The notes: generated by a model from the sequence alone, not told the origin. A DNA stretch of 64,000 nt from Elsinoe ampelina (GCA_010093995.1 ML992503.1:735234-799233); one strand, 5' to 3'; positions 10,006-41,475 are shown, counted from the first letter of the stretch. Made by a program: numbers and translations.

Positions 10006-11089
10006 GGCGACGAATCGCTTTGAGGGCAGGATAAAAATGAGCCGCCGCCATGTCCGCCGACCTTCATCTTCTTATACCATCTTCTCATTCTGAACACCGC
10101 CACTGCCCTTGGTTGACATGACTTGGCCCGCCGGCGGGGGTGAAGGCTTGTGGAGATTGCCAAGTCGCGAGATCTGCGGATCCCCGCCTGCAAAAAAGTG
10201 CTCGACGATGAGCCGGACCACGTCATAGTATGTTGTATTCTCATCTCCGGTGGAAATGGTACGACAGGTGTGGTAGTGTTGTGTAAATGTGTAGCTCTTC
10301 TTGGGTATGCATGGCACGACGAGCGTAAGTGGCGCTGTCAGTCACGTGATCATTTGCAGATAGCCGAGGTAAAGTAAATCGCTTTCTTGTGAAGGTGTAC
10401 GGACGTCCCTGGAAATTAGACTTGTAGTACTACCTTGCTAGTAGTATTAAAGCTATAGCATAGCACTTGCCTATTAGCTCGATAGAAGCTAATTTAAGTC
10501 ATTAAATAGCGAATTATATATAGGGCTTTTTAGTTTAAACGAGCTACTCTAGAGCTTAGCGTAATTGTTTTAGATGTTACATTACTAAATTTGGCTAGCT
10601 AGATGTCTAGATAGATTATAGTTATAATTGTTATTAAAATTGCTTAATTTTTAAAGCTAAAAAAAGATATAATAGTATAGTAAACTATTAACGTTACGAA
10701 ATCCCTAACGCTAGAGAGCTACGTTAAACTACTTCTAAGTAACTAACTTAGTTTAACTTAGTTCAATATAATTCCCTAGTTACCTCTAGGTCCTACTTAG
10801 AAGTAATATAGTTTTTCCCCGTAGAAATCTAAAAACCCCTAATACGTAGTAAATAGAGATAGTCTAATAGTAGATAGCGCACTACGTGTATCTCTTATCT
10901 TAGTTTAAGCGTTTCTTAGTTCGCGAAGTAATTAGTTCGTGTCTACTCTATAAGCTTAATAATATCGATTATAGAAATATTCTATTATGTAGCTTATCTT
11001 GTAGTATATATTATATATATCTATATATTATATAGACCTTGTAATTCGTCTACTACGTCTAGAAAATTATATAAGGTTGCTAGAATATA

Positions 11090-13060
11090 TATATTACTTT
11101 ATATTCTACCTAACGCTACTCTCGATAATAATATATATACTATCTTCTTATAATTCTATATCCTTATCCCTTAGTTCTATAAAAGTATCTCTATCTAGCG
11201 GATGTCTATTCTCCTTAATGTCTAAGATACTACTACTATACTTTAGGCCGATTTAGTACTACAAGACTAGTTTATATAGTAGGCCTCTAAACTTCTTATA
11301 TATAAAGGACAAAAAGTTTATCTACGTCTATATACCTAAGAAATCCTTCTACTACGCCTCGACCGCTAGTAAATCGCTATTAAGTTGTCTATCTTAGGAT
11401 AGTATAGTACATATATAATCGAGTAGCCTAGGTAAATGTCGCTATTAAGTCTATCGATTCTTGTATATACTAACTATAACTTAACTTAGTTTAGTAGTAG
11501 TTAAAGTCACGACAAGGTTACTGTCTATATTAGGCATCTACGCCGGCTATGCTTCTATCGTAGGAGTTGCTATAGAGCGATTTAGTACTTTACTCCTACA
11601 CGCGAACTAAGTAGTACCTTAATACGCTATAATAGAGTATTTAGCCTTAATTAGACGCTCTTCTCGATCTATTAGTATTAAACTTAAGAAGCTAATAGAA
11701 GAATTAAGCTTACCTCTTAAAAGGTACTTAGTAGAAGCATTTCGTACCGGTACTATATAATAGCTATTACTCCCGCTATTAGGCCCGTTATTATATACCT
11801 AACTTCTCTATAAGTTAGTTCGAAGTTAGGTAGGCTAAACTAAAACGAGAAGGTATATACGTACCTTTCCCTTGTATTTTCTCTATCTAATAGTCCCTCT
11901 ATAGTATTAGTATAAAGGGATATATTTAACACTACTACTACGACGGTAAGTCTATTTCTCTCGACGTACTTAGCAAAGCTAAGTTTTAGCTAACGAAGGA
12001 TAAGAACCTATCTCGGGCTAATCTACGCTAGAAAGTTATTCTAAATGCTTAGTTAGACATAATCGAGTTCTAAAGGTTCTATACGTTTAAATACTAGTAT
12101 TCCCTTAGGTAAGTAGGACTTGACCCTATCTACTTACTTAACTAAGAGTATATAAATCGTTGCTAGGAGAGAGGAAATAAGAAAGAGTATTAGTTCGTTA
12201 AAGTAATAGCAAGTACTAGCTATTATAGCTAAGCCTATATGTCTAACAAAGGCTGCTTAGAAGGCTTTATATATTAAAGAACTTCTAAAGCGTTTACGCT
12301 ACTATATATAAGTAATTAATTAATAAGTATATCTAGCGCGTACTAAATTGCTGTCCTTATATTAGTACTTTCTTTTCTCTAGTAGCCTACGTGCCTAATT
12401 CGGTAGCTCGCTATTCTCTAGCCCCTTAGCTAGCTATTCGTAGTAGAGCATCTCGCTTACTATTCGTGTAATATTGTTACGACTATAGCGGAGCGCCTCT
12501 TAGAGCTACACGTATGTTAATAAGTAATTAGCTTTAGCTACGTGACCTACCTTACTAGCTATAACTACGGAAGAGTATTCGCCTATAGTCCTCTATAGAT
12601 AAAGTACTAGTAGCTAGTTACGGACCGAGCGCTAGTACTATATAATTCGTAGAAGTAGCTATTAATCATCTAATGTTAGTAATATTGTATTATAATCTAC
12701 TTCGATAGCTATACTTATATGTAGATTGTTATACACCGCCTCGAAAATGTCGAGATACTAGTTTAGTACGTTCTATTACCTCCGCTTTACTATCTTAACT
12801 AGTATAGAGGCTAACGTTAGGCTATTCTCGTTAGGTTATAGCTTCCTTAAACTCGGATTAAGAGTAGTAATGTCTAATTTATACCTTCTTCTTCGTCTTC
12901 GATATTATATTTATAGCCTACGTAGTTAGCTTAGTCTCTCTTAATGCTAAAGCCTTACTCTACTTTATCCTAGTTAAAATAACCTAAATTATTATCTTCG
13001 GAATACTTATTAGTCTTATAGTCTAAGCTATATAGGCGCCGACGTGCCTAAGATATCTTA
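11090..13060 (-). pseudogene. RIP-degraded cargo gene of unknown function (acidic N-terminus, intron-containing)
   Basis: One minus-strand frame over ~11720-12780 reads as protein with only TAA/TAG stops; acidic exon at ~12880-13020 is followed by a GT...CTAAC...AG intron. Boundaries approximate. Confidence 0.4.
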
Positions 13061-13599
13061 GTTTATAATAGTTCTAATAAAGAGGTATATAGGTATAAGA
13101 GAGTTAGCAAGGCAGGCCGGAATAATATATACTATAAGGGAGATAGATAGTTATCTTATGTGCGTTATAGTAATTTAGCGTTAGTTTAAGTTAGATAATA
13201 GCTTAGTTAGGTATTTAAAGTACGTAACTTTCTTCTAATTAGAATTAGTTATATCCGCCTATACCCTAAGGTAATCTTAACTAGTAAGAGTATTAAATTA
13301 GACTTATAGCTAGGTCTAACTTACGGAGTACTAATTGCTAGAAGCTAAACTAAAAAAGAAAGCTACTTAAACTTACTTAGACTAAATACTTAAACTAAAT
13401 ATAGTATTTGTTATTAGGTTAAGCAATAATTAGAGTAGAAATACGTAGAGAGAAATTGTAGATTAAACTTAGACCGAGTAATTATATACTAATTCGAAAG
13501 ACTATAGGAACTAGCTATTATATATATAGATAAGTAGCATAATTCATATAGTGGCTCCCTTATTAATTACGTTAGTAGTTCCCTCTTTACTAAGTAGTA

Positions 13600-15237
13600 T
13601 ATCTTCTAAGTGCTAAAAGCATTAATTGCTTACTATCTCGCTATCTAGGGTGTCTAAATAAGACACGCTAGATAGAGTAGCTTATCTTCTACTAATTATG
13701 TCGTAATAGAGAGCAAGCGTCGATTAGCTATTAGTAACTATACATAGTAATAGTAGAGTAGTACTATTAGTATAGCGTTATATACTCTTGTTTAATCTAA
13801 ATAAGCCCCTTAATACCCTACTAGTAAGGTCCGTAGAGGCGACGCTAAACGCGTAAAAAGCTTTACTAATATACTCCCTAAGTATATTATTCTCTCGCTA
13901 GAGTTGTCCGATTAAGCTTACGTTCTTCTCCGCTATTAATTGTAATTAGCCTACTTCCTACTAAATAAGTGTAATATCTTCCTCTAGGAGTTACTATCTA
14001 TTAAGCTATTTAGGCTACTAGGTCCTACGTCGCTTTTACTAGCTACTAATATAATTATACTCTTCTCTATACGTGTGTAGTAGAGAGCTTCTAATTTAAG
14101 CCTCTAGCTAGTTAGGGAGACTATTAGAAGACTATACTTTAACACCTAAATAGATAAGAGAAGCCTATATACTTAATCCTATAGTCTAGATGTTAGCCGC
14201 TAGAGAAATAAGGTCGGTGTAATTAATATTTATACTTAGAAGCCTAGCTAAAAGATACTAATAAACCCGATAGATTAATAGTAGAAGGATAGATAAGTAA
14301 TTCTAAAGGGCGATTTAGTTAAAAGGCAAGGAAGGATAAAGCGTAGTAAACGAACTAAAACTCTAAAGTTTAGTAGTAGGTATAGCTTAGCGTAGATTAC
14401 TCTACTACTTTTTAGTTCGACTTAGTCTACTACCGGACTATTCTCCTTTATGCTTACTTCGGCTAGATGCTTTCCTTAATCTCGTTGCCTTATTAGAATA
14501 TAAAGAGGTAAACTGTGTAATATCTTAGATAAGATAATAGTCTTAAACTAGATAGCATTCTCTATTATAGCGAAATGTAGCGTTCTATTGTCCTTCTAAC
14601 CTATGATATTGCTTTGCTTATTATATATATAGTAGTCCGTTATAATTGATATTACTCTTAGCTAATCGAACTTAATATCTATATCCTCCTTAGATATAGT
14701 AGTTATAGCTTTATAACGTATAAGTAGAAGATCTCTAATCGAGTAGATAGGATATATTTCTCTATCCTTACGAACTACTAATAGTATGTCGTCTAGTTAA
14801 TTAGAGAGTAAAGGCGCTTATAATTACAATTAGCAATTCGAGGATTTATTCGAGGTAAGCGTATTAGCACTGTTCTACGCTCCTCTAGGCTTATATAATC
14901 TTAAGTGTAACTATACCCGCTAACGTCTAAAATTGGTACTTATCTTATAGACGAGAGCACGGAAGGTAGCTTAACTATCGCCGCTCTCTAAGAGCTCTAT
15001 TATACGCCGAAACGTATACCGAATGTTATTACTGTCTAGTACTACTAGAAGTACCTCCTGCTCTAACCTTCTCCTATTAGAAATCGACCTAAATGTTCTT
15101 CTAACTATGCCTTTACCTATTATAATATCCTCTAAGAGACTATATAAGTCTCTATAGCCTTTATCGTTAAGAGCAAAAGCTTGCTTAATAGCTTTAATTA
15201 AGTATATCGCTAGTTAATAAGAAGTAGATATAGGTAT
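13600..15237 (-). pseudogene. RIP-degraded cargo gene of unknown function
   Basis: Nearly stop-free minus-strand frame over 15237-14900 (AIKQAFALNDKGYRDLYSLLEDII...RRRLEQEVL...ATFRALVYKISTNFRR). 3' extent uncertain. Confidence 0.35.
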
Positions 15238-15467
15238 AGCTACGGAGGAAAGGAGAGAGATAGAGGTAGAAGAGTAGCGGTATAGGTAGTAATTCGGTAC
15301 AAGTATTACTTACAATAGATAAGCCTTAGATCTTAGTTTACTTACGAGAGAGGCATACTAGAATTGTGCTTAGTTATAATTAGTTAGCCTAAACTAACAC
15401 TCGTAGAACTATAAAGTTTAATATGCTAAACTTTATCTTTTCTTAGTTTTGTCGTATGCTTATTACG

Positions 15468-16270
15468 TAGTAATATAACTATATTACAAATACGATTCGT
15501 AATAACGCCTTAGTTTACGCTCTCTACTTATACCGACCTAAATGTAGGCGTTAGCGTCCCTAGTATAATCTTTTCTCTCCTCTCTATCCGACCTTAATAA
15601 TAGCTAGCTATCTATTATAGTAGATTCCTACGCCTAGTATACTACAATTATTAATTGTTATATATACTATAGCGACTCTAATATTTACTCCTACCTTGCT
15701 GTCGCTACTACTTCTAATAGTATTCTCTATACTAGCTACGTCGTGTTTATAGGATTAACTACTACTAGTACCTAGTAGTTACGCCGGAGCAAATCTATTA
15801 TAGTATACCTCTCTATCTTGCCTACTACGCTACTATAGGCTTAAGGGTACGTAAGGAGACTCCGATACCTCTTTTCCTCTCCCCGCTACTACTACTCTCT
15901 ATAGCTTCCTTTACACTAGCTACGTATCATTAGTAGAATTAGCTACCGTCTCTATCTAGTAGCTACGACTAAGCGAATCTATTACGGAGCATCTCCTAAT
16001 CTTACGGACAGCGCTACTAGGAGTTCTAGCGTACGTAAAGAGAGTAGAGGAGCTAGCGTCTACTAGGAATTATCTACCTTATAGTATAAGAATATTAAGG
16101 GGAGAATTATAGAGAAACAACTAGTATAATAAAGAGAAAGAGATAGAGGCATATCGCGGGTAAAGATACGTCTACTACCTCCTACTAGATAGTAGCTTAC
16201 TATAGAGAGCGTTATAGGCGGAGCTATATTAGTAGTATTCTCTTTTATAATTACTTTTATAGCGGAGTTT
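15468..16270. repeat. Direct repeat X, copy 1 (~800 bp; copy 2 at ~29664-30465)
   Basis: Collinear with 29664-30465 (offset ~14195), e.g. TTACGCCGGAGYAAATCTATTATAGTATA and GGAGCATCTCCTAATCTTA; differences are mostly C/T and G/A. Confidence 0.92.
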
Positions 16271-17049
16271 TATTATTAGTAGCGCTTTATTATAACTTCC
16301 TTACGTTAGTAATGCACTTCTTTCTATATAGATTATATACCTATTACTTTAATTCCTCTCCTCTAACTAGTAAACAAAATCTTCTTATCTAATACGTATA
16401 AGTATACTATATATCTTTCTTTATTCCTTATTATTCGTCTTATCTTCTATCTGCTATAAAGACATTAAGGTTGTTGCTTTACACGATAATACTCTTTATT
16501 AAATAGTCTACTAGCTATTCGAAGCATATATAACTTCGTATATAGTACTAATATATAAGCGTTTAGTATAGTTAATTACTTTAATACTAATTTTCTACAA
16601 TAATTAGCACTTATAACATCCTCCGATAGCTACGTTTTGTTTACTTACCTAATTTACGCCTTATAATATTTATTAGTAGTAAACTAACTTATTTACTTTT
16701 AGTTCTAGTATCGACCTAATATTAGTAATTATTACATATCACTATTAGCACGTACGAAATATAGACTTAGTTAACCTAGTTTACTTTTAGGTTGAGGCCT
16801 AAACTAGATCTTAGTTATAAGTATACTACTTACTTTAGTATACTATCTTAAATACAAATTTTATTATATTTAAGAAGTTACTACTTACTTTCCGCATAGT
16901 ATTTTAATATTATACTAGGTGGCAGGTATTTATAATTGCTACTATTTGCTCTATAGCGCTTAACTTACTACGCTTAGTTCCTAGCTATATAATCTTAACT
17001 CCTCTAACCTTACCTATCTTATACGACGCCTTTACTAGTAGATATTCTT

Positions 17050-17512
17050 TGTCACGAACTGTCTAAATATAGCCTATACTAGTAGTCTAAGCTAAGCTAG
17101 GAACGAGGTAGTTCTACTTCTATAGTAGTATAGCACTAAGGTAAGAGTCGGAGAAGGTATGTCTTATAGATAATAAAGTACAATTAGATAGTATTATAAA
17201 GGCTAGCCTTAGTAATACTAGTATTCGCTATCTAGACAAGGTTAACTATAGTACTTATATAAGGTAAGGACTATTCCTATATATATATATTCTCTATTAT
17301 GTTCTCTATATGCTCTATATACTCTATAGCGAGAGTTAGAGGCAATATAGAGTACACGTCCGCTAGTAACCTACGTGCTCTATAGTTTTAGAGGTAGAGC
17401 CGCTAGAGAAGATAGAGAACTAGGTAAACATCGGGCTAGGTCACGTAATAATCTCGGTAGCTTAATTAGTCCTAACGTCCTTACATTTTAGCTATCCTAC
17501 TAGTTTATAACA
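17050..17512 (-). repeat. 3' LTR
   Basis: TGTCACGAAC...TTTATAACA; adjacent minus-strand purine tract AAAGGAGAAGAGTAA. Confidence 0.95.
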
Positions 17513-18099
17513 TTACTCTTCTCCTTTAATCGAGTTGTCCTAATAAGTAAGTATCCTTCCTTGTCCTTACGCGCTATGTACTAAATATGCCTTCTAGTCG
17601 TTAAAGGCATAGCAAATCTAGTATATCCGTACGAAAGAATCTCTTAGAGTTTATTAAACTATTCGGAACTAACATGCTATAGGCTTATTCTCGTTATAAA
17701 TCGAAGGGGCTAGACTACAAGGTCTATATTTAGTCGGGTATCTATAGCTAGTATATCGTAAGTAACTACTTAGGTTATAATATTTAGATAACAAAATTAG
17801 AATAGTAGCGTCTTTAGTCTAAGTGTATTTATTTACGAAAGGAATTAGTTATAGCTAAGGCTACTAGAAGAGAAGCTAAAGAAGCTTATAAAAAGGCAAA
17901 AGAGACTTATTAAAGAGCTATAGGTAATAAGCTTTACCTACGCGAAGAGATACAAAAGTTAGAGAATAAGGCGGAGAAAGTAATCTCTCTAGAAAAGACT
18001 CGTATTTAAGTCTTAGAGTAGGAGGAAATACTATTGTCGGTGAATCTCGTCCTACTATAGAACTAGTAGTTATTTATGCCTAACTCCGATTAGAGTTCC

Positions 18100-21000
18100 T
18101 TACTTAGTAATAATTAAGGTACTTCTATTAGTTAAGTAATCTTCCTTAGACATTCTCGTTTTTGTTTAGTGTTTAGAGTACTAGGTCCGTCTAGTCGATT
18201 TACTTAGGATAGGTTCTCGATCTAGTAATCTAGAATTACTTACGAGGTAAAGTACTCCTCTAGTTCCTATGTTACTTTACTATACTAATGTTCCTTCTAG
18301 TAAATAAGATAGTAATGTTTTTCTTTTATAAGTTTATAACGTAAAACTCTTTCTATCTTATACTATAGCTCCTATGTTTCTTCCTCTAGTTCGATAGGTC
18401 TAGGTATAGTATTCTATAGTGCTTTCTCTAGTAGTAATATATAAAAGACTAGATAAATCCTTATATGTCTTAGTAGTTCTAGTTTATATACGTTCTTGTT
18501 TTTCTTTTCTAGGATCTTAAAGAGTCCTAGTTTAGTATAGTTAAGTTTCTTACTCAGTTGTTTCGTTTTAATGTTTTTACTAAGGAGGTAAACTTTCTCT
18601 CTCTCCTATAGAATTAGTTCTATAATTCTCTTTTAGTTAGCAAACTCTACTATTCTTTATAATATAAATGCTATATTATAGTATAGCTAGTCGTGTAGTT
18701 TCTTAATGTTAGCTACTAGTGTATTAGTATCCTTAGATACTAGCTTAATTCTAAGTGTGTCGTAGTATAGATCTAGGTATATCCTATAGTTTACGTAGAA
18801 TAGTAAAATTCTATTTACTAACTTTCTATTATTAACGGCGAGCTCTATAAGTAGTAATAGCGTCGCCTATAAGTCTTGCTTATAGTTTAGGTAGTATTAT
18901 AGGTACTACTCTAGTACTTAATTTGCCCGTTTAGTTTATCTGTCCGTTTGTAGGTAAAAGAAGATTAATAGCTTATATTTGACTTCTAGTAGGTCTATAA
19001 ATAATTACTAGAATTATAACGTAAATAGCTTATCCCTATTGGTTATTAAGTCTCGTAGTACTCTATGTTATAAAACAATTATTCGAAGGAAGGTAAAGGC
19101 TATATCCTCGGTAGTTACTATTGTCTTATATAGGACAAAGTAGTAATACTTCGTAAATCTATCTACTAGGACTAGAATGCTATTATACTTTATACTTGTA
19201 AGAGGTTCTTCTAATAGCGGTAGAGGTCCTATAAAGTCTATCGTAACTAATTACTATAGTTTGTCTAGTAGTAGTAAGAGTTATAGTAGGCTATATAGTC
19301 TATGTTAAGAGTACTTAGACTTATAGTATGTATCGTAGGCGGCGATATACGTCTTAATATTGTTTCGGAGTTCTTTCTAGAGGTAGTTTTATATAATAAG
19401 TTTAATAGTCTTATTAATTCTGCTATATTCCGCTATTAGGTTATTATAGTGTATTTAAATAACTTCTTTCTTCCGTTCTTACGTAAGCTCCTAGGTAAAG
19501 CTATATAACTGCTTTACTTTCGGGTGCTTATAGACTAGAGCGCCGTCCTACTACTTTAGTATAGAGGCCTCTATTATTGTTATGTTTTTTAAGTAATCTA
19601 GCTAGCGGCTAAGAGCGTCTACTTCGCTATTCTCTAATTCCTTAACATAGTAGATCTAGAAGTTGTAGCTTATAAGTGTTTCTAACTATCGAACCTGTTG
19701 TTTATTAAGAACCTTAGTTATTGTCTAATATAGAAGGTTCTTATAGTTAGTATAGACTTATACGAGTAAGGTTGTCCCTTCTAGGTATACTCTCTATTCG
19801 CGGAACGCTTCTATAATCGCGAGTAATTCTTTATCGTGTATGTCGTAGTTAAGTTTAGGTCTAGTCATTTTTCGTAAGTAGTATATAATTGGGCAGCGTT
19901 GTCCTTCTACGCCCTTCTACGCTAGATACGCTTCTATTACAAAGTCCGAGGCATTCGTTTCTAGTAGTGCTTATTAGTCTAGGTCAAAGAGTACTAGGAC
20001 AGGTGCTATTATAAGTCTAAGCTTTAGCTCCTTAAAGGCCTACCTATACCTCTTATTAAAGACAAAGCTAGTTTCCTTTTTCGTAAGGTTAGATATTAGC
20101 GTAGCTACCTTAGAGAATCCTTTAATAAACTTATAGTAGTAGTTAAAGAACTCTAGTAGCACTTAAACCTCCTTAACCGTCGTAGGTTCCGGCTAGTTAT
20201 TTACTAACTTAATCTTCTTTAGATCGGGTCTAATACTATAAGTAGATATAACATAGTCTAGAAATTGTATCTTATGTTTATAGAACTTACACTTAGAGAG
20301 TTTTACTAGTAGGTCTTTTTCTTTTAGTTTCTATAGCACTTTATAAATATGTCCTATGTGTTTATTATACATCTTTAAAAAGATAATAATATTATCTAAA
20401 TATACTAAGATAAAATTGTTAAGGTATTCTTGTAGAGTATTATTAATTAACTCTTAGAAGGTTACAAGAGCGTTAGTTAACCTAAAGAGTATAACGAGGT
20501 ACTTATATAGACTCTATTACGTCCTAAAAGCCGTCTTCTACTCCTTGCCCTCCTTTATTTATACTTAATAATAGGCATCTCTAATGTTAATTATAGTGAA
20601 CTATTTAGCTCTAAGTAGTTAGTCTTAAAGTTCGTCGATCCTTAGTAGAGGATAGCGATTCTTCCTAGTAAGTGCATTAAGTTTCTAGTAATTAATATAT
20701 ATTTGTAACGTTCTATTCTTTTTTAGTACAAAAAGCACTCCGTACGTAATAGGTAATTTTAATAGTTGTATAAATCCTTTAAGTAAGTACTTATCGATGT
20801 AGTCCTTAAGGATATTCTTCTCTTGTTTCAATAGTAGTATAAGACCTTAATAGTGTGTTGGGGATTTACCTTCTTTAAAAGGTATTTTGTAATTCTATAG
20901 TTTATATTAGAGTAAGGCTATAATATCTTTCCTTTCTTTAAATAAGTCCTCGAAGTCTTTATATTCTAGCGGAAGTACTTAATTACTTACGCTAGCGATA

Positions 21001-23490
21001 GCTCTAACTATTAGTTATACCTATACTATCCTTATAGTTAGTATCTACGGAGCTAATTATACTCCCTATATTCTATAATTACACTTAGGGAATTCGAGTG
21101 TTTCTTTAATCTAGTCTACGTCTAGATTGTATTATTAAAGCTAGTCTATGCTAAGTACTATATTGTACTACATGTTAACTATATCGATTAATTATTTTTC
21201 CGTATATGTTTCAATTTAGATTATAACGTTTTATAGTTCCTAAGTAACTTTCCCGTTCTTCCCTATAGAGGTTTTATCCGCTATAGTAAGTAAGTAAGGT
21301 AACTCCTTCTAGTGTTAATAAGGTTTAAGCTAATTAGCAACTGTTATAGAGACGTAGCTATAGTTAGCTCCTAAATCTATTATTGCTTTTACCTTACTCC
21401 CTTATATTTCGACTTCTAGTATAAAGTAGTTTAACGTGTAGATCTTTATTATATTAAGGCTTTAGCTAGTGTTATTGTCTTGCCTTATTAGGCAACAACT
21501 AGCTAGTTTTTTGTCATTGTAGCTCCTTAGATAAGTAGCTAATCTCTTTCTACACGTATCTACTATTAGTACTATATCTATTAGGCAAGTCGTATTTTGT
21601 TGCTATTTAATATAGTAAGGTAAACTTCTAGCGCCTAAGTCCCTTAGTGACTATAAAGTCTAATAATTCTCTACTAGTTACACTAAGTAGTATTATACAC
21701 CCGTATAGGTATAACTATTTCTTCTAGGTATAGCTAGGTATTAGTATTAAAGACAAAAACAAGTTATATAGATTCGTCTTATCGCGTCCTATTCTAGTAG
21801 TAGGTGTATATTATTATATAATTCCTCTATATCTCTATAAGGTATGCTTTAAGTCGTCTACTTAATAGTAGTACGTCGTTGTTATTGTTATTAGATAAGT
21901 TCTTATTTGTGTTATTACATCGTAGTTGTTCGGTGTATTCTTTATTATATTTCTCTTCGTCGCTACTACCCCTAGTATAGTTATAGTTAGTAAGGCTATA
22001 CCGAGTATATTCTTTTACTTAGCTATAGGGAATAGTACTATCTATCTCGATTACTAAGAAGTCCGTAGTGTATTTAAGACTAATAGTATCTTCTCTAAGC
22101 ACATTGTATAAGTAAATAGTATAGTACTATTTATAATTTAGATTTATATATTTCTAGAGCGACATATAATACGCCTTTCCTTATAGTTCGCCGTAAGGGC
22201 TAAAGGTAAGACTACTATATTATCGCGTAGTACTTACGTCCTAATACTTTATCTCGATAATCGTATATTAGTAATTGTTACTAACTACCTTCTAAGGTTA
22301 GTTAATGTTACTACTAATTATAGAGAGCCTTTCTAGGTTAAGCCCCTAGTCTAGCTATTTTATTAGTTACCTACGCTTAGATAGCTTATATAGGAACTAA
22401 CTAGATCCCTACTTGTCTAATAAGTAAATGTAATAAGAGTTATCGTAATATACTATCTATAATAGCGTCGCGTATTAGCTTTATTGTTCGCTATTAGTCG
22501 TAGAGATATTAAGTATAATATCTAGAGAGGATTCTATTGCCTCTCGAGTCGTTATAGACCCCTTCTATGTTTCCTTACCTATACTAAAGGTTATTAGGTC
22601 TTCTATAGTAGTGTCGGCCTTTTTTTCTACTAGCCTAGTAACTATTATATATAATTCATCGGCTAGCGCCCCTTATCGGTAGTCCCTAGCCTAATGCCTA
22701 GGTCTTTTATACTTAAAATATAAGTTATCTTATCTATACTTCTCTCTCTCTTTTCTACTAAGGAACTTTCCTCTATAACTATAGCCTCGTACCTATAAGG
22801 GGCAGCCTTCGTGTATAGTATTAAGTTCTATAGAGTCTCTATAGTTTCGAGAGAAACGCGTATATCTAGTATTTACCTTATATCCCCTATAACGTTCTAT
22901 ACGTCGTTTGTAAAGTCTATTATTAATAGCAATTATAGTGTCTACTAGTTCCTAAAGGCTATTAGGCGGCTTAAGTATTATTTAGTCTTTGACCGAGTCG
23001 CTTAGTCCTTAATAGAATACTAAGTGTTTAGTACTATCGTCCTAGTCTAGGTGTATTACGAGTTGTTAGAACTAGAAATAGTACTAGGCTATAGACCTAT
23101 ATTGTTGTAATTGTTAGATCTTTGTCGTAGCAACGTGTTCCTCGTTAGATACGTTAAAGACTTACTTAATCTTTGCCTAGAAGATACTAAAGCTCTTAAA
23201 GATAGCCTTTATATCTAGGCCTAGTTATCTATCTAGGTAGCCACTTATATAAGGCTCGAACTACCCGAAGGCGGCGCCCTTAAGGTATATCTTAGTATAG
23301 AGGACCTTTGCCGCGTCGTTACTATACTTATCTCTCTCTAGAGCAAAGAAGGCTTTAAGTTAAACAAGGAAGCGCCTTAAGTAGGCGCGGTCCCTATAGA
23401 AGAGTTCTACCTCTAACTTAGGCCTACTCTATCCTTCTATACTAAAAGACCTTCTATATTCGCCCGAGGTTAAACTAGTAGTAGATATGT
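18100..23490 (-). pseudogene. gag-pol relic
   Basis: Motifs after RIP reversal: gag FHGDRAHLRRFLVQ (~23400), CCHC knuckle (~22680-22725), protease AMIDSGA (~21370), RT EWKTAFRT / YEYLVMPFGLTNAP / VYLDD (~20390-20545), RNase H ETDASDF and NYDIHDKELL (~19820-19965), integrase TMDFIGPLP and HPQTDGQT (~18930-19245), chromodomain YEIERVL...YLIHWK...TWEPEE (~18250-18365). Confidence 0.93.
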
Positions 23491-23604
23491 CGTTAATAGT
23501 AAGCTTTTCTAGCTTACTAGCGATTAAAGATACTAATAGTAACTTAGAGTAAGAGTTACTTATTAACCTCGTAGCGTGCTATACTATAGTAAGGGTAGTT
23601 AAAA

Positions 23605-29536: not shown

Positions 29537-29663
29537 GATTAAGCACTCCTCGGAACTTAATTACGTAATGCTATCTAATTATATTCTTCTCTAAAGTTAA
29601 GTATCGTATATTTAGAGACTTATAATCTTTATAGCATTATAAATGCGTTGCAAACTCTGTTTA

Positions 29664-30465: not shown

Positions 30466-31361
30466 GGCGAGGAATAAAGCGTATTTGTAATTATATAGAA
30501 TATACTATTAACTGCCTATTCCGCGGAATGTATAGCCTTTACTCTACTCTACTACTTAATTCTATATATAGCAATTATAAAGTCTAGATAATTAGATAGT
30601 AGTATATTACTTTCTTTATTCCTTTACTAGCATCTATAAGCTATACTATACGCTATACATACTATGCCCTTTATTCCGCTATAGGCTACTAACCACCTTC
30701 TATTTATATTCTATTACTATTGTCCTTTATATACGAATACTAGTTTTGCTATTAAAATATTGTTTCATTATTTCACGTTAACTACTACTATATTTCCTCT
30801 ATTTATTAGACTATTATTCCTTAAGATCTACCCTAAACACGACAATAGTATCCTTAGTGTATATAGTATATAAAATAAAAGGTAACTAAGTACACGAACT
30901 ATAGTTACTCTTAGTTTAGTGTCTAAACTAAGTAATTTACTATTATATATATGCTATATCTAGTATACTACTACGTGCTTAGTTCGGGGCCTAACCTAAG
31001 TCGACTAAATTTAGGTTACTTCTCTCCTTAATTGCTTTAGTTTACCTTTGTTTATACTCTCTTATATATAAATAAATAACTTATATAGCTCTCTAGTATT
31101 TCTTTAACCTCTTTAATCTCTCTTTTAAGCGCTCTTTACTTAAATATCTCCTCTTTAGTTAAGTCTTAGTTAGGTATATATCACGAAGTGTATAGACCTA
31201 CTATGTTAATAAATTCTCTTCTTAATTCTTCTAAACTTATAAATACGTAACACCTTTATAGAATCTCTTCTTTAACATCTACTACACCTACTTAACCTAT
31301 TTACTAGATATTATTCTAAGCTTTATTTGTAGTATATACTAAGCTTATAGATGTATATAAT

Positions 31362-34300
31362 ATGTCTAAGAATTAGCCTAACGGCGCTAGTATAGCTACT
31401 AATAACATTCCGCTCTACGAAAGACCTCCTATAGAAATTTAAGCATAGCTTAATAAAAACCTTAAGATTAAGAGATTCTTCCTTGAATTCTTTAACTAGG
31501 ATAACAACTAGTACGCCGCCGCACGCGTAAGAGCGTAGGAAGAATATAAGAATGCCTATATAGTTCTAGAACTCGAATATAAGGAACCTTAGAATAGTAA
31601 TGTTAATATAACTATAATTATAAATAACATTAAAACTTCCCTATAATACTCTTAGGATAACTATACGAAGATCTTCTTTTAAAGACTATACTATTAAGAC
31701 TAAGACTAGTTTAAGAGGAACGTTAGAAACTATAATAATATATCTAGTTATAATGTCATTAAAGATTTTATCCTTACTATTAAGGCGTAAGAGCTTAGGA
31801 ATAAGAAGAATTAGACTAAAGTAGATAAGAAGGCTTATTCTAAGAAGCACATTAGAAAGCGCCTCTCTACTATCTAGTCTAATAGTAGACTCTTCGAAAG
31901 ATTAGAGACTTCTATACTTAGTAGCGGACTTATAGGTATAGATATTAATTACTATACTAGTTAGCCTATATGTTAGTAGTAAATACTAGAGGACATGTCT
32001 TGTCTAGTCTAGAGTATTATCGATAAAACTATTATCGACTTTATAATTGTTAAGTAATTAGATATTAGCCCGGGCGTAATTATAAAGAGAGGATATTTAC
32101 ATTATCTATAGGTGTTTAGTCTAAGAATTTTAAGGTCACATCCGGGGGATTATAATCTAAACGTATATAGCCTTAATAATATTAGGCTATTCCTAAAGGA
32201 GAAGAAGTTAGTTAGCAATAATATTATTCTTATATAGATAGATTATATAGAGCTATATAACATCCTACCTATCTTAGACAACTATAACCTACGTGCTACT
32301 ATAATTAACTATGTTAACTCCCTAGTTAAAGGTAGTAATATAATCTTTATCTATCTTACGCCTAGTATAGATCTAGTTAAGAAGCTCCCTAAAGAAGTAC
32401 TTTATAAGTTTAACACTTAGTTCGACTTAGGTATATACTAATATACTTAGTTAACTCTCTTTAGTATTGTAATAGTTAGAAGCTATTAACTCTAGTCTAG
32501 GAGGAAGAGAAAGAGAAACCTCTAGCCCCTCTATCTCTAGCTAAGTGCCTACTACTACATAAACCTACCCCTAAGAAGTAACCTAGCTCTCTACTACCTA
32601 ACGAGGATAATACTACTATTAACTATCGTCCTACTCGGGTGATAGAAGACAAATACTATAAGCAATACCGAGACAGCAATTAGTATCCCTTTATAATTAT
32701 GCCTAGCGAGGAGCAAGTAAGGTACTATATTCCGTTAGTCTCTAAGACGCTATCTATACCTATCCTAGCGCTTATAACTTGCATATTTAATAAGACTCTT
32801 AGCAGCTCGAACTTTATTAAACTTTATACTATAAACAATAACAACGACGAGTAAACTAGTAATAATCTAGCTAACTAAAGCTTTATCTCTATAGGTACTA
32901 GAATTAATTACTAGTCTAAAGAGTTCTAGGAGAGAGTCTATAACTTTATAGGCTTTAAGAAAGACATCTACTTACTAAACGCTAGTATATAGTGTTTTAG
33001 TTAGAATAAGAAGTATCTAGTCGAGGCAGTATAGATATACTTAGCGCTTATTATACTTAAGAAATACCTCGAAGGCTATCTAGTATTTATATTTATATAT
33101 AAGATAGAATTTAGAAAGACTCCGATAGGACTCTTCTTTCTCTTACTAATTCGGAACTTAAATAAAAAGGTTATCTAGAATACTAACTATACTACTATAC
33201 CTAAGGATAAGTAGAGTAAGTACTAGAAGGTAAAGATACTAGTTAACGAGCTATAGCTAGATATTACTTCTACGGATACTATTAGCTATAATCTAATTAT
33301 TGGCGGATTAAATGTAATAAAATAGTAGGCGCGAGAGATACGAAAGTTTATACCTAATATAAAGGTCGTCCTATACTAGGGAAGAATATTCTAAGCTATG
33401 TAAGAACATAAGTACGGCGACGTATATAATATAGACACTTTAATTTGTAAAGAGGATCTACCTATAGGCTGCCGCTAATAGGAGTCTTAGCTAATAGATA
33501 AGTCTAGTAAGTCTATCGACACTATTATAGTCTTATAACTAGTCGATATACGTAAGTGACACCCCTAGACCTTATAGATAAATAATTAGTTCTTCTTTAC
33601 TACTTGCGATACTATAATCTACTACTTCCTTAGTAAGAACAATATAAATACTAAGGATTAGGACTTTATTCCTAAGGGACAAGAGAGAAAGCCGGGGTCT
33701 ACGCCTATAAACTAAGCTACTATTATCTTTAATAAGTTCTATTAGGTTACTAGCTAGAAGACGTAGACCTAGTATTATCTAGGAATACTACTAGAGAGGC
33801 CTTTTATACTAGATATAAGCGAGATACTATTTATTAAGTGCTTAAATGTAGTAGCGTTCTTAATAGCGGCTATATATAAGGACTTTAGATTAGAAAAGCT
33901 TAATATAAATAGAAGTAGAATAGGAGAATTTAACGAGAACTATATCTATAAATCTAAGTAGAAGCTAACTAAGGCTAAGAATAATAAACATTAAGTAACA
34001 CTAAAGACAACACTAGACAAGACTTAATAAGCTATCGCTAATAAGCTTAACTTCTAAATAGTATTAGACTATGCCTTTGTAATTAATAAATAGTATAAGG
34101 CAAATAACAACTCTAGTAAGTTTAACAAAAAGAGAGGTATATAGTTTATAAAAGAAATTATAGTAATAGTTAGTAAATAGAGTACTATCCTTACGAATAT
34201 TCTTATTAAGATAAACGTAAACTATATCTAGAAACCTTTTAATACTACTCCTAGTCTACTAGCTATTAGAGTTCTACTATATTCTACCTTCGACCTAGAG

Positions 34301-35343
34301 ATCGCTATCGAGGATAAGTATCTTTATAGTCTTATAAATATATAGAAGAAGATTAAACGAGATATAGATAAGAGTATATAAGAGGTAATCGATAGGTAAA
34401 AGGACAAATCCGATAAGCCCGAAGTAACATTAGAGATAATCCTTAATAAGAAGACTAAGGAGTAAATACTAAGCCTAGTTATGCTACTACTACTTTTCTC
34501 TATGTTTCTTGCTCTTATAGATATATTCTAGAACAATCCCGCGGTTATAGAAGAGTTTAGTAACTTTACTATTAAGTTTACCTACGAAATTATATATAAC
34601 TCCTCGGAGATAGCGCTATAGTAGCATATAGATAAGATCTACGCTAGTTCTTAGATAAAGGTCCTTTATAGTGTTATTTCCGAGATTATTAAGTAGAACA
34701 TCTCCTATTCGAAGGAGCTAAAGAGGTAAGTAATTGTCTATACATTTACACTGTTAGTGCTAGTAGTTGCTACAATAGTTAGTTCGGTCTATTTAGTCTA
34801 TTTAGGTTATTACTAATAAGGGTATAGTATCTAAAATAGCTCGAGAAGCACCTAGACGGCAAAGCAATTAGAATTGATAAGGATACTAATATAGTTATTG
34901 TCTACTATAGAATAATATCTATACCTGCCTATATAGATATCGTCGACATAGCTATATCTAATAATACATTTATCGAACCTAATAGGCCGGAAGGCTTAAG
35001 GATCTTAATTGCCTAGGGTAGAGCTATTAAGACTAGTCTTAATCTAAACTGCTTTAACACTATAATCTCGCTTAATATAGCGTTAGTGTTATAATCTATT
35101 CTTTAGTGTCTAGCTTAGGTCCGTAGGAACATTAAGTCTTAGAAAGCTAACTATATAGAGGCATTTATAATAAAGCTAATAGCTCTGTTCTATAGGCCTC
35201 TAGAATAGCTTAATAGTAGACAGGGTAGGCCGTTAATAATATAGAAGGTCATCTACGAGGAAATAGAGAAGTAGAAGGCAAAGATCTAGAAACTTTAATA
35301 AGCTATAGCGAAGAAGAACACAATTATTATAGATAATAATTAA
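31362..35343 (+). pseudogene. RIP-degraded SWI2/SNF2-like SF2 helicase/ATPase gene B with a long N-terminal extension
   Basis: ATG 31362. After RIP reversal: Walker A HEMGFGKT (TAT AAG ATA GAA TTT AGA AAG ACT, 33098-33121), Walker B IIFDEFH (AAT AAG TTC TAT, 33731-33742), motifs V-VI TGLNLNCFNTIISLD...SILQCLAxVRR (35032-35127). Confidence 0.82.
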
Positions 35344-35840
35344 GATTGCTAGATAATAGTCTAACTATATCACCTAAAAATATAATTCTTTAGTTTAGCG
35401 AACTAATTTAGTTCCCTGTGTATATTAAACTATCTTTTAGGTTACCTAATATAATATAGTATCTAAATGTTTTCTACTTTCTACTATCGCTAAAATTTAG
35501 CTAGCTAACTCTAACTACGAATTTAGATCTTAAGCGACAAACATAGATATACTAAGGCAAATTAGTAAATACTCGGCCTATAGGAAGATTATATAATCTA
35601 GTAGAGGCCTTGTCTAACATCTACTGTATTACTAGAGAAGAGAGCTACTAATAAGTAATATAGCGTAAGTCTTACTAGAGTAACGTAGCGATAGACATCT
35701 ACGTAGAGATAACGCTAGTAATAATCCTTGCTTATTTAATAAGGGAGAGCGCTTACTATCTAATAAAGGCCGACGAGGTAGTATTACTAGTAATGTATAA
35801 TATAGTCCGCTAACGCCGAATAACCTACTAGTCTACTTTA

Positions 35841-38800
35841 CTCTGCTACGAATAATAGTAACTAAGAATCGAACTAAACACTAGAGTAGAAACGAAAGTC
35901 TATAGCCGGTAGAGAGTGTCCTTTCCCCTTCGCCTACTATATAGTATAGTATAGCGGATAATCCTCTTAGTCTCTTTACCGACCTTAACTCTTAACCTCT
36001 AGTATATAGAACGGATAGTAATAGTGATAGTAGGCTCGATAGCGACGTACACGAGAAAGAAGAGAGCATAGACAAGGTTATAATAGAAGGCACGCACGAG
36101 GAAGAGTAAGTAATTATAGTAAGCATAACTAGTAGCACGTCTATAGAGCGAAGTACTAGGAGGTTGTCCTTATCTAGTAGAGCTATATCCGATTATACTA
36201 TGTTTAAGATAGCTACTAGTATACTAGCTAGTAGCGAAGAGTTAGTTATAGACATAGTTTATCCTTAGTTTACGTTAACTAATCTTGTCTAGATCTCCCT
36301 AAGTCTATAATATATATACTAACACTGACGATAAACTAAATTACAATTAGTTAGGCGAGACTTAACTAAAGAAAGCCTTTATTAGTAGTATAGACGTAGG
36401 TCTTACCTAGTAGCTTATAAAAGAGAAACTTAGTAGAGCTATAATTACGTAATTACTTAAAGACCTACATATATAACCTCTAGTAGAGAGCCTTAGTTAG
36501 CGAACTACGAATGAACTAATAGAGAAGATAGAGAATTTAGATACGGGTAGGGGCATTAACGGCTAGTAGACCTTAAGCTTTATACTAAACACTAATCGTG
36601 GGCCTAAAAGACACACGTTCTAGCATCTAGATATTCTTATAGCGATACGCTTCTTGCTTAGCTATCGCAGTTTCGTAGTAGATATAGACTATAGCCTATA
36701 TAGAGTCTTTATAGAAGCTATCGAGAGTAAGCCGCTATAACAAGTGTATACCGAAATAGTAAGCGGCGACTAGTAGTAGAATATATAAAAGCGACTTAGA
36801 ATACTAGGGGCTACTATTATTCTATTAATTGTCGCGAGTAATTAGACCTAGGTAATAAACTATTAAGGAGATCTTATAGCACACGCTATCTATCTATTAT
36901 TAGGCAACCTAAAGGTAGAAGCACGTAATAGTAACTACCGGCCGAGGTAGTTACTAATTAGCTTACTTTCTATTATTAAAGATAGTAGCAATGTTGTTAA
37001 GGAGAAGACCTACTACGCTTGTATAAAGAAAATCTTTAATGCTGTTATTAATTACTACTCGAGAGAGAGCGAAATAATCTCCTATATAAATAGAAAGAGG
37101 TAGAGGTACTTCCCTATACTTACTACTATACCTACGAATTACGCCGAATAGGTTACTATAACCGGTGTAAAGTTACTATATCATTGTATAAGTTGCCTAA
37201 TTAGTAAGAACGAAAGGGAGGACCTAGTAGTTACTATGCTATTCTAAACTTACTACTCTACGTAGCGATAATAGCGCTTATAAAGAGAAGTACGCGAGAG
37301 TTAGTAGCGGAGTAAGAAGATAGATATAAGCTCTTAGGTTTATATAGTTAGTTACTTTACGTAGGATCTTCCGTATACTAATATTTACTACGCGATAGTA
37401 CTAGATATTCTACACTAACTTCTTAAAGGCGTTTTAATACACGTCTTACACTAGACTTAAAAATTGCTCTAGGATTTAATGCCTATATAGAGATTACTAC
37501 GGTATATAAAGGCTAGAGAGACTATATAGTAAATAGGCTACTAGCGCTTAGTAAAGGAGATTATACTTAATATTATTGACAAGCGTTTTAATAGTATACT
37601 AGTGTTTCCTAGCATCTAACACTTCTTATACTACTTAGCTATTAAGTAATAGATAGGTTAAGAGTAGAAGAGTATCGTACGCTAGATGCTTCTAGTATTT
37701 ATGCCGCTACTTAAGGAGGTTAAGGCGCCTTAAGCTATTAAGTTTATACGTATACTAGTCGACTTTATATTACTAGTAAACTATAAGACCTATAATAACG
37801 ACATACTCTAGTATATTAACCTTATGCTCTTTAGGATAAACAAGTATAAAGAAACCTTCCGGGCCTATTATAGCAATAGGAAAGAAGAGAGCAACTTTAA
37901 CTTTCTAAAATAGCACTTAATAATATATTTTTTAAAGGCTATCTATAATTTCGAAGTAGTTACTAGCCTCGATTCTAATTATTTAAAGTACAATTATATA
38001 TGCTTTATTAAGGACGCCTTTAAACTTATAAACAAGAAGGCTAGATAGAAAGACTAGGTTACTACTTATAATACTAAACTAGTAAACATGTTAGTAATAT
38101 TCGACAACCCCTCGAAGTTAGTTAGGCTATTAGCTACTAAACTAATTAAGATCTAGAGTACGCTAGTTAGCGTAAGCGATATAGTAAACGTCACTTCTTA
38201 GTTTAGCTAGCCTAGCGCTAAGGAGAGAGCTATATAGCGTATAGTAAGAGAACTAGAGGCGCTTATTAACATACTACCTAGGCTATTACTATAGCAAGTA
38301 ATAGCGGTGTTTGTCCGCGAGGCTCGTTAAGGTATAGCTAATATAGGCTCTAACTCGAGAACTAAACACTCTAATTAGTTTAACGCTAAACTAGATCCCG
38401 ATAGACTCGAACTAGATTCTTCCTAGGTAAGTGACCTCTATATTAAGTTCTACTATTCTTTAAAGTGTAGGAAACTATCCGACTATAATTCTAATAATCC
38501 TAATATAGACGAATAAGACTTTATCTAGTGTATAACTAAATAGCAGAGAATACGTAGCAATAAGAGGCAAGACTAGCTCTAGGTATAAGAATAGATAACG
38601 AACAACGAAGGCACTAACGGAGTATTACCTAATAGCCTACAAGGTAAGTTACTAGCTTATATTATATTTATAATAACTATAGAGGATAGCTTCTAGTCTA
38701 GTAGATTAGGCCGGCGTTAACGCCTATACTACACGGGAGCGCTAGTAGATCTATATTAGCCTACTTAGCCGGATAGAGTAGCTAATTAAGAGCATAGCAT

Positions 38801-39086
38801 GACACTAATTAAGCCTTAGACAAATCGACGCGTACGAGCTAGATAGAACGCTCTTACTAGTAGGCGTGTCTACTCTACCTCGTAAATCTACTATAGTATC
38901 TACGTTGTACTAGTAGATAAAACAAGACTATATAGCTAGATATACATTAATAACATAGCTAACTTCGATATATATAACATGCTATAGAATAAGTTATAGA
39001 AGTCTAAATAGCTCTACCTAGCTAAGGCTTTAAAACGAGAAAGGTTAAGATCCCTAGGCATAGTTAGTAAGTGTAGTAGGTATTAA
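35841..39086 (+). pseudogene. Plavaka-family transposase relic (true start probably somewhat further upstream)
   Basis: After RIP reversal: VYTEMxSGDWWW..Q...PGATIIPLIVASDQT...AIYLSLGNL (36744-36911), DYAEQV..TGVK...HCxSC (~37137-37197), PDILHQLLKG (37401-37430), DKRF..IPVFPGIRHF, QWTG, FNFPKWH (37896-37916), C-terminal YINNxADFD. An intron at ~36241-36293 joins repeat Y in frame. Confidence 0.88.
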
Positions 39087-39399
39087 CGAAGCTAGAGTAC
39101 TTCTTTCGTAGCTAGAATAATTGTCTCTTACGTTAACGGCCTAACGCTTAGGTATACTTAGGTTAACTACTAGACTATGTTAGGTAGGCGAGTTATAATA
39201 ACTTCCGTAGGTATTACTCTAACTAGTTAGTTTATACCTATATGTTATTAGGTTAGTCCCTAAACTATATAGGGTTCGTAGCCTAAGGTACCTTATGTAG
39301 TTTTTACGCTAAAGAGTTAGTCTATTCCTTTACTAATTATAATAGCTTAGAAAATTATAGTAAGGCGTTATAGAAGTTAGTCTTTAAGATGCTTAAGAC

Positions 39400-41300
39400 A
39401 TACCTTAAGTATTTAGTAACAGCGGTAAAAGGCTTAGGTTAGTAAGTTATCTTTAGGTTAGTTTTACTAATAGAGTTAGCGGTCTAAGAGGAAAGTTTAT
39501 TCTCTATAATAAGTTTACTAATAAGACTCCGATGTAGACGATAGTACTTTACTCTATTCGCTATTATATCGCAGAGATCTACTTAATACTACTAGAGTAG
39601 TTACTAAGGACTTATTCCTTTCTATCTAACGGATAAGATCTATAATAACACTAGCTTAGAAGACTCGCTAGAGAACATTCTTATTAATCTCTATATATAT
39701 ACTATACGTAGGAAACGAGTTAAGGAAGAAGCTACCCTTTAGTACAGCAAGTAGCCTCTTCCTTGTCCTTTAAAGTCTCCTTTATATCTATGTAGGTCGT
39801 AAGTATTTTCTTATAAGATTATTAGTATATAATATATATATAATAAATCCTGTCTATAAAATTATATACTAGATTATCCTACACGCGCTATTACTGTAAC
39901 TACTACTTAGTAGTAGTAATAGTAGAGTAGCGGGATATAGTAGGAAAAAGTATTATTATACCTACCTCTAAGAGGGGGATACTCTCTTTCTCCCCTATAC
40001 CTTCCTCCTTGCTCTCTACTATAGTAAGGTATACTATAACTAAAGCTACTACTACTACTCTCTCTATAACTACTATTACTCGTATATAGCTATAACTATA
40101 GGTTATTACTAGAAGCTTAGTACGCGTCGGAGTAACCTTATCTTTAATATATAGCAATAAAGTGCTATAATCTCAACCTAGACACTGCCTTTATTACCTC
40201 TCTAACAACTGTTATAACTAGCGCCGAGAGCTAGTAAGGTAAGAAGCGTACTACCTCTACCTTCGCTAGTGTCTATAGCTATACTAGTATTAAGCTCGGC
40301 AAGGTAGAGAAGAAGAGTAAGAAGCGGAAGGAGCCTCTTATTATTACTAATTACCTCCTTACTAATAACCTTATAGATAGACAGTTAGGGTAGATCTTAA
40401 ACTTCCTAGAAAGAGTATTTACTTCTCTACTATAACTGCCTTCGAGCTGTCGTTTAGACTACTATATCCTTAGTACTATCTCTAGAGCTACTTAGACACT
40501 ATACTAATGTCTATTAGACCTTACTTTTCTAAGTAGTCTTTCGTAGCTCTAGAATTATCCTTCTAGTAGGTATACTATTCTATGTTAGTAGACAAGGAAT
40601 TAGCTTAGCCTAAACTAAATATCTATTATATTTCTCGCACCTGTCTATGTTAGTATTAATCTTCTTAGAATAGGCTATAGCCTCGCTACTATAGCCACTA
40701 TTAATGTAGTATATCTAGCTTCTATTATTATTCTCTTCCTACGTTACTAACGACTTCTAAGTACTAGAATAGGTCTATAGGTATTTATACTCGATGTTGT
40801 AACTATACTTAGCTATAATAATTAAGTCCTTCTCGGGAAAAGCTTTCTTACATCTACAAGCCTAAGTTATAAATGCCCCTCTATAAGCTTATTTTACATT
40901 GTCGACGATATAGGCTACTAGATAGTAGAACTCGTAGGCTATAGAGTAATAGAGGCGCTTTTCGTTAGTGTTAACCTTTGTTACTAGCTATATAGTCGCG
41001 CGAAAGTGCTTATCTTTAGAGACATCTAACACCTTAATAGATAACTAAGTAGAGACGATAAAATAGAGTTAGAATAAGTATATATTAGTTTAGGGTTTTA
41101 TATTATAAGCTAGAGAATAAGGCGTATAATGTCTACTTTCCTATTATAGCGAAAGTGCTTCTATACTAAGCTTCGATAATATAGAGCATATACTTCCCCT
41201 CTATCTAGCGGACAAGATCTATAATAACACTAGCTTAGAGAGCTCTCTCCGGAAGATGCTCGTTAATTTCTATATCTATTCTAGTCGCGGCAAGTAGAGC
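39400..41300 (+). pseudogene. RIP-degraded cargo gene(s) resembling fungal BTB/POZ-domain proteins (two related C-terminal segments)
   Basis: ~100-bp repeat at ~39617-39720 and ~41198-41300 translating YLxDKIYNNTSLExSLxxxLxNxYIY; upstream IILLVG (~40553) and YIVARKCLSLETSNTLID (~40990-41043). Confidence 0.4.
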
Positions 41301-41320
41301 GTTTATCTAATCTAAGGCAC

Positions 41321-41392
41321 GTATAGTGCGTTTAACTAAAATTAGATAGGTATAGTGCATTTAACTAAATTTAGGTAGGTGTAGTACGTTTA
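41321..41392. repeat. Subterminal 29-bp tandem repeats (2.5 copies) near the right TIR of the Plavaka element
   Basis: GTATAGTGCGTTTAACTAAAATTAGATAG / GTATAGTGCATTTAACTAAATTTAGGTAG / GTGTAGTACGTTTA. Confidence 0.8.
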
Positions 41393-41475
41393 TAGCGACC
41401 TAACGTAGTTAAACTTAGTTTAATATAGAGAAACTTAATATTCTAACTCTCTACACTTAGGACTTTCGTAACGAA

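Follow-up and report, generated by a model that had tools for sequence, protein, structure and literature searches.

A probable RIP-inactivated copy of a many-copy Plavaka DNA transposon in Elsinoe ampelina

Plavaka DNA transposons were long known mainly from their transposase, and the complete elements described between 2021 and 2025 come mostly from mushrooms. Starships, by comparison, are tyrosine-recombinase giant transposons of the Pezizomycotina. Here we analyze a 64,000-nucleotide stretch of the Elsinoe ampelina genome (GCA_010093995.1 ML992503.1:735234-799233; hereafter the window, on which all coordinates are based) and an element at 10692-41473 that a preliminary description had called a giant, cargo-carrying Plavaka transposon hidden under repeat-induced point mutation (RIP). 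We find that this interval is probably one RIP-inactivated copy of a many-copy, cut-and-paste Plavaka DNA transposon of the CMC/CACTA-related, DDE-transposase type.

In the portions of the literature drawn on here, Plavaka families are told apart by their ends: PlavakaA elements have a 2-bp target site duplication (TSD) and TGT..ACA ends, and PlavakaB elements have a 2- to 3-bp TSD and CATCA..TGATG ends (Kojima 2025, Biology 14:1741, PMC12730594). All six PlavakaA families in part 16 of the supplement start with a TGTCG(G/C)A.A..TCC-like word; the usual published size is 8.5 to 10 kb, and the lengths in Data S1 (December 2025) span ∼6.6 to 15 kb for complete Plavaka families, with one of ∼22 kb (PMC12730594). 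Plavaka elements with terminal inverted repeats (TIRs), a 2-bp TSD, and a CATAC end motif were reported in November 2025 from an ascomycete, the Chinese white truffle Tuber (Genome Res, PMC12581995), and the TIRs of Marasmius Plavaka had been characterized earlier (Hiltunen 2021, PMC8290104). In the wider clade, enlarged EnSpm/CACTA elements of 16 to 20 kb with four to five open reading frames (ORFs) have been described from Chondrus crispus (cited by Arkhipova & Yushenova 2019, PMC6431247). The preliminary description took this architecture to be possibly undescribed in ascomycetes, a reading overtaken by the complete Plavaka elements with TIRs and 2-bp TSDs printed in 2025, Tuber included (from the portions of PMC12730594 and PMC12581995 cited above).

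The element in the window is bounded by imperfect TIRs of ∼27 bp that start 5′-CGTTACGAAA and encloses a Plavaka transposase relic. Its defining features are as follows.

10690..10691, no strand: left copy of the putative 2-bp TSD AA; right copy at 41474-41475
10692..10718, plus strand: left TIR (CGTTACGAAATCCC...), matching the right end at 22 of 27 positions
36300..39086, plus strand: full-length Plavaka transposase relic (PF18759; intact relative P0001)
41447..41473, minus strand: right TIR, pairing with the left TIR; contig depth drops in bin 41422-41935, and X3 contig 23, of a second organism (below), has its match limit at 41473

Starting at 10692, the left end reads CGTTACGAAATCCCTAACGCTAGAGAG; against 41447-41473 in reverse complement it is identical at 22 of 27 positions, including all of the first 10, and no other pair in the 64 kb of the window reaches 20/27. 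When the 34-kb AT-rich block that holds the element was simulated 300 times with a first-order Markov model, the best TIR score was 20, and 22 was reached in 0 of 300. Written in RIP-tolerant form (YRTTAYRAAA), the first ten bases are found in the AT-rich block only at both ends and in one weak match internal to a nested Gypsy element. The matching imperfect TIRs of the preliminary description are therefore upheld, as is the AA on both sides; the 2-bp TSD reading (AA/AA) comes from one insertion, at which three bases do not match (TAA vs AAA). The subterminal 29-bp repeats that it reported are present at the right end, as three tandem copies at 41295-41381 (100/72/69% identity), but absent from the left end. 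A shorter motif, the 7-mer RTTTAAC/GTTAAAY, occurs 16 times in the element, with two copies within the left 200 bp and three within the right 200 bp.

The transposase relic occupies a single frame of 929 codons with 78 stops (54 TAG and 24 TAA). Searching 36300-39086 with Pfam gave the Plavaka profile PF18759 at E=7.6e-30 and 104.7 bits (cut-off, 26.3) over profile positions 5-322 of 325 and nucleotides 36510-37448. A word-based homologue search with the relic found none, and HMMER later found many: 646 proteins at E<=1e-3 among 1.84 billion representatives, of which the top two (905 and 963 aa; E=1e-104 and 1e-103) each align colinearly with the relic over one stretch. In the best intact relative, P0001 (E=1.2e-104), relic residues 63-919 align without a break. 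PF18759 is present in all five of the nearest intact relatives tested, and one relative is the hypothetical protein KAF2715839.1 of the Dothideomycete Polychaeton citri. The five motifs singled out in the preliminary description (GDWWW, ASDxT, DYxEQ, PDILHQLLKG, and FNFPKxH) all appear in the alignment, RIP-altered, and the codon changes of the relic are RIP-like, with W and Q turned to stops, D to N, H to Y, and P to L. The relic reads HCISC where its relatives have HCxxC, so that C-x-x-C is kept, and KXHLIIY where they have KFHAxxH (the FPKFH..H motif), the second H having become Y by a C-to-T change. By the profile match and these motifs the relic belongs to the Plavaka family.

The element is inserted 15 nt inside the coding region of a 3.4-kb host element, which lies on either side of it.

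10513..10691, plus strand: left arm of the host Tc1/mariner-like element, a long TIR (inverted repeat of 10513-10690 against 44684-44495) followed by the first 5 codons, from 10677
41476..44684, plus strand: rest of the host Tc1/mariner-like element, with DDE_3 at ∼41942-42343 and the right TIR arm at 44495-44684

The DDE_3 match (PF13358; E=3.6e-7; 30.6 bits, above the cut-off of 28.6) and the ∼180-bp TIR arms on both sides agree with the earlier placement of the insertion in a Tc1-like element, and a DDE_3-type transposase between TIRs points to Tc1/mariner as the host. Joining 10691 to 41476 gives ATA GTA AAC TAT TAA followed by ATT ACT, in frame, and the junction had been read correctly as sequence. 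The right TIR arm of the host is much G+C-richer, i.e., less RIP-mutated, than the left arm.

The whole nested block is strongly RIP-marked. It forms an AT-rich block of 34 kb with a GC content of ∼0.32 (flanks, ∼0.53) and a sharp end at 44684, and every part of it is extreme in both RIP indices: TpA/ApT is 1.8 to 2.4 in the block versus 0.57 to 0.65 in the flanks, and (CpA+TpG)/(ApC+GpT) is 0.2 to 0.3 versus 1.1 to 1.3.

Between the TIRs, the remaining sequence is laid out in the following parts, with the transposase gene between the last two.

10719..15467, no strand: left part L, without a recognizable gene or internal homology (Pfam, 0 families in six frames; alignments at noise level)
15468..17049, plus strand: first piece of module U1, with block A1 at 15468-16262, 87.7% identical to A2; Pfam, 0 families
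17050..24067, minus strand: nested Ty3/Gypsy long terminal repeat (LTR) retrotransposon, with LTRs at 17050-17514 and 23605-24067 and TSD TTCTT at 17045-49 and 24068-72
24073..28963, plus strand: second piece of module U1, closing in block B1 at 28489-28963, 87% identical to B2; Pfam, 0 families
28964..29663, no strand: 0.7-kb spacer between the modules, with a 100-bp tandem pair inside and without homology to L, U, or R
29664..36315, plus strand: module U2, directly upstream of the transposase gene, many-copy and also in organism B; Pfam, 0 families
39087..41446, no strand: right part R, with the 29-bp tandem x3 at 41295-41381; Pfam, 0 families in six frames

We compared the right side of the element with contigs from two public runs of one sample (X1 and X2; organism A, the source, with the locus present) and from a run of a second organism (X3; organism B, 5% of words), mapped to 29600-44999 (15.4 kb) at 80% likeness. 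On this interval 8793 contig pieces mapped from X1 and 6610 from X2, and 1419 of the 1494 places (95%) scored for kinds of change in X1 were transitions. Word depth in X1, summed over contigs, is 7.4 to 17.0k over 29600-41421, 2.1k in bin 41422-41935, and 1.2 to 1.4k over 42450-44999, a drop of about five-fold at the right terminus; a unique flank contig, for comparison, has a depth of 191, and the Tc1-like element stands at ∼6- to 7-fold depth. The interval from 29.6 to 41.47 kb, evenly and highly covered, is repeated many-fold in the source organism, with a right limit that fits 41473 and with U2, the transposase, and R together (∼11.8 kb) acting as a single repeated unit. Contigs of organism B, 87 to 89% identical to the window, cover the same three parts: contig 20 is unbroken over 36141-36855, from the end of U2 into the transposase, and contig 23 matches up to exactly 41473 and continues with 16 unlike letters; bins 42964-44505 have no X3 cover. 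At 625 of ∼1086 change places the letter is G/C in organism B and A/T in the window, and the reverse holds at 321 places. The copies of organism B are less RIP-mutated relatives of the same family, for which common descent and transfer are both possible.

These data also bear on whether the ends match by chance and the block is a pile of unrelated RIP-degraded repeats within the Tc1-like element. Such a coincidence would be eased by the low complexity of AT-rich RIP sequence, by a TSD of just two bases, and by a left end that falls outside the contig mapping; even so we regard it as highly improbable, given that 22/27 was never reached in simulation, that the depth step and the end of the X3 match coincide at 41473, that excision leaves the host frame and TIR arms intact, and that the subterminal motif is enriched at both ends.

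Within the interior, the Gypsy element is a clean nested insertion. It is ∼7.0 kb long, with TG..CA ends, LTRs that are 91.5% identical, and a 5-bp TSD (TTCTT). On the minus strand Pfam reported RVT_1 (5e-14), RT_RNaseH_2 (1.5e-20), and SH3_Tf2-1, but no integrase core. The LTRs, TSD, and domains bear out the 7-kb Gypsy of the preliminary description.

Less the Gypsy, the element measures 23.8 kb, made up of L (4.8 kb), U1 and U2 (∼6.5 kb each), the spacer (0.7 kb), the transposase gene, and R (2.4 kb). The preliminary description did not record that U1 (15468-28963 less the Gypsy) is homologous to U2 (29664-36315) in direct order. At their starts (∼0.8 kb) and ends (∼0.5 kb) the two modules are 85 to 89% identical with 0 to 1% transversions, and their middles are 60 to 68% identical with 10 to 20% transversions and 327 gaps, mostly of 1 to 2 nt; the state of the middles is incompatible with a recent duplication in place and subsequent RIP. 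Candidate causes of the pattern are gene conversion at the ends and descent from two diverged family members. In RIP-tolerant alignments L gave no more than noise-level scores against U2, R, and the spacer, and the spacer, whose two 100-bp tandem units at 29336-29536 are 90% identical, had no match in the rest of the element.

One account of the module pair is that the interior is composite: the unit that moved would have been 16.6 kb with a single module, or 10.6 kb if U is a mobile element in its own right that inserted twice, and U1 and the spacer would have come later, via recombination with or insertion from a diverged family member. Near-identical ends combined with middles diverged beyond what RIP explains are typical of repeat-family members that share cis-acting ends; the spacer is without homology elsewhere in the element, and 10.6 kb fits the usual size of published Plavaka families (8.5 to 10 kb in the portion of PMC12730594 cited above). 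However, the module ends yielded no TSD, TIR, or LTR, and Pfam found no reverse transcriptase or other transposase in U. In all three runs (X1, X2, and X3) the depth of U2 also equals that of the transposase and R, and in organism B U2 is contiguous with the transposase; for these two reasons U2 at least belongs to the family unit. On balance a composite interior is a credible account but one that we somewhat doubt.

The opposite account, that of the preliminary description, is a ∼23.8-kb multi-gene cargo carrier in which everything but the Gypsy is canonical and moved as a whole, with at least six gene relics. Its structural side has some backing. A single TIR pair encloses everything, and a ∼22-kb Plavaka family is in print (Data S1 of PMC12730594). 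Blocks A and B have 1.2 to 1.75x the depth of the U2 middle, transposase, and R, as expected if most copies hold both modules, and six X1/X2 contigs carry U1-type sequence at 35913; from the higher A/B depth and these six contigs, U1-type modules appear to be repeated as well. The extra depth may instead stem from a related subfamily or from non-autonomous derivatives. We had also considered the loose end at 35913 as a deletion joint and rejected this, the sequence being plainly U1-type.

Its gene content fared less well. Six-frame Pfam scans, with stops read as X, covered 10692-17063, 24070-36153, and 39100-41477, with 36154-39099 read in the transposase frame and the Gypsy in part, and returned 0 families in the non-Gypsy, non-transposase DNA, where RIP may mask weak relics. 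Since the transposase, the Gypsy, and the host DDE_3 were all detected in the block, relics as well kept as these would have shown. The transposase is thus the only one of the six or more proposed gene relics that we found, and no cargo gene, host-type or accessory, is demonstrable between the ends in these scans, an absence of evidence in DNA where RIP may hide weak relics. The differences between U1 and U2 likewise lack a coding signature: transversions fall on the three codon phases without periodicity (188/206/194; p=0.65), and 69 of 327 gap lengths are multiples of 3. When the six frames of the element were compared with 80 metagenome Plavaka loci, all 127 high-scoring segment pairs lay at 36000-39000.

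The same metagenome loci supply an argument for accessory genes. In the two closest loci with at least 2 kb upstream (2/2; L001 and L002), the transposase is preceded on its own strand by an SNF2/Helicase_C-type ORF, at 12-635 in L001 and at 3295-7302 (1335 aa) in L002, which is the place of U2 in the window element; accessory genes are accordingly usual in this lineage. Against this, phmmer with the two helicases gave nothing significant on the raw frames, and a script-made deRIP consensus, searched as 6 sequences, yielded E-values of just 0.0085 and 0.29; the helicases are 24% identical to each other, so that this test is low in power. A word-based search with the L002 helicase returned only itself. 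A by-eye likeness to an SNF2 helicase at 33260-33400 (plus strand) was rejected, with 0 Pfam families on 32870-34069 at E<=10 and no significant phmmer match. The U1/U2 deRIP consensus, made by script, contains a 208-aa open stretch on the minus strand (∼35634-36258), a short way upstream of the transposase gene and pointing away from it, compared with a maximum of 162 in 50 shuffles; it had no tblastn match in the 80 metagenome Plavaka loci and is a lead only. Taken together, we think a multi-gene cargo carrier unlikely. No Pfam scan of the element frames matched a tyrosine recombinase or DUF3435, in line with the earlier statement that the element is distinct from Starships.

Several points count against reading 10692-41473 as a copy of a many-copy Plavaka transposon. 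Summed contig (word) depth is, by the caveat of the tool itself, not copy number, and the contigs on 29600-44999, a range that stops short of L and the left end, revealed neither a second full copy nor a copy with a different TSD nor an empty site. The AA/AA match alone is weak evidence, as ∼1 in 10 AT-rich pairs would agree by chance. Searched for exactly, the shared TIR pattern had 0 matches in metagenome contigs. The TIR start, CGTTACG, is only partly like PlavakaA TGTCGGAAA and falls outside the published end motifs TGT..ACA, CATCA..TGATG, and CATAC, and the terminal C at position 1 is not derivable from T via RIP. Finally, U1 and U2 combine alike ends with old, diverged middles, and no TSD flanks either module.

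With these points taken in, we still favor a Plavaka transposon copy. The Plavaka transposase would have bound the TIRs and subterminal repeats and excised the unit, which would then have been pasted at an AA dinucleotide with duplication of 2 bp, as published PlavakaA elements do. The Ty3/Gypsy retrotransposon would have landed inside the Plavaka element later, and RIP would then have mutated the whole nested block. The unit that moved may have been at least ∼12 kb, with sizes of 10.6, 16.6, or 23.8 kb in play, because the 23.8 kb hold two diverged paralogous ∼6.5-kb modules and a 0.7-kb spacer. That both modules were in the unit that moved, i.e., 23.8 kb rather than 16.6 kb, is a real possibility to which we give slightly less than even weight. 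The RIP-hidden Plavaka transposon with defined ends thus survives from the preliminary description in its ends, transposase, and RIP; the element is a real Plavaka transposon copy for which neither “giant” nor “cargo-carrying” is established.

A stronger version can be stated, in which the 23.8-kb two-module unit is the canonical form of a once-active Pezizomycotina Plavaka lineage with its own 5′-CGTTACG termini, tens of copies before RIP, a presence in at least two organisms, and accessory genes such as an SNF2-like helicase. We consider this improbable; if true, the ascomycetes would have, independently of Starships, a cargo carrier that runs on a DDE transposase. The Plavaka copy that we favor leaves the picture of the Plavaka working mechanism unchanged, with gene cargo not shown. 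Its interest is that a well-bounded, many-copy, and unusually long Plavaka family in a RIP-competent ascomycete widens the host range and end motifs of the group, and that high copy number before RIP silencing was within reach of a DDE transposon 12 kb or more in length, possibly 24 kb. The module pair, with its near-identical ends and old, diverged middles, merits following up.

Two further features lie in the left part of the window. A GH43-like, secreted-looking gene at 9001-10350 (minus strand) abuts the AT-rich block; its Pfam match (E=2e-6; 27.8 bits) is below the cut-off of 32.2 and belongs to a fragment. At the window start (2-624), in DNA of normal GC content, there is a diverged tandem repeat with a period of ∼90 to 100 bp, whose self-BLAST pairs have 66 to 69% identity.

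Set beside the described systems, as far as the cited portions of the sources describe them, the window element shares with PlavakaA (PMC12730594) a Plavaka transposase, a 2-bp TSD, and one large transposase gene. Its 5′-(Y)GT...CG.AAATCC start, together with the 2-bp TSD, resembles PlavakaA, and the terminal words, TGTCGGAAA(AA)TCC in PlavakaA and CGTTACGAAATCC here, are alike but not equal. Among the 80 metagenome loci, the PlavakaA start word occurs in 20, at chance-like positions, and the 10-mer of the window element in 0. Unlike PlavakaA, the element has 5′-CGT..ACG rather than TGT..ACA termini, is 16.6 to 23.8 kb rather than ∼8.5 to 9.5 kb long, and resides in a RIP-competent ascomycete, the published families coming from Agaricomycotina. 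PlavakaB-1_ScCi and other long PlavakaB elements (entries compared by their first 400 letters) provide the likeness in length: because Plavaka elements of 13 to 22 kb exist there, large size is not new for the group, although PlavakaB ends in CATCA..TGATG. With the Plavaka of Tuber (PMC12581995) the element shares an ascomycete host, TIRs, and a 2-bp TSD, and it differs in that the Tuber TIR motif is 5′-CATAC and Tuber belongs to the Pezizomycetes, while the window copy is RIP-degraded and has relatives that include the Dothideomycete protein KAF2715839.1. The EnSpm/CACTA elements of Chondrus crispus (PMC6431247) are, like this one, oversized members of the wider clade, the extra ORFs being those of Chondrus; they come from a red alga and have CACTA termini and a 3-bp TSD.

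Starships are likewise large mobile units of the same fungal subphylum. The window element, in which a captain tyrosine recombinase is undetected, differs from them in its DDE-type transposase, its TIRs, its tens of copies, and its far smaller size.

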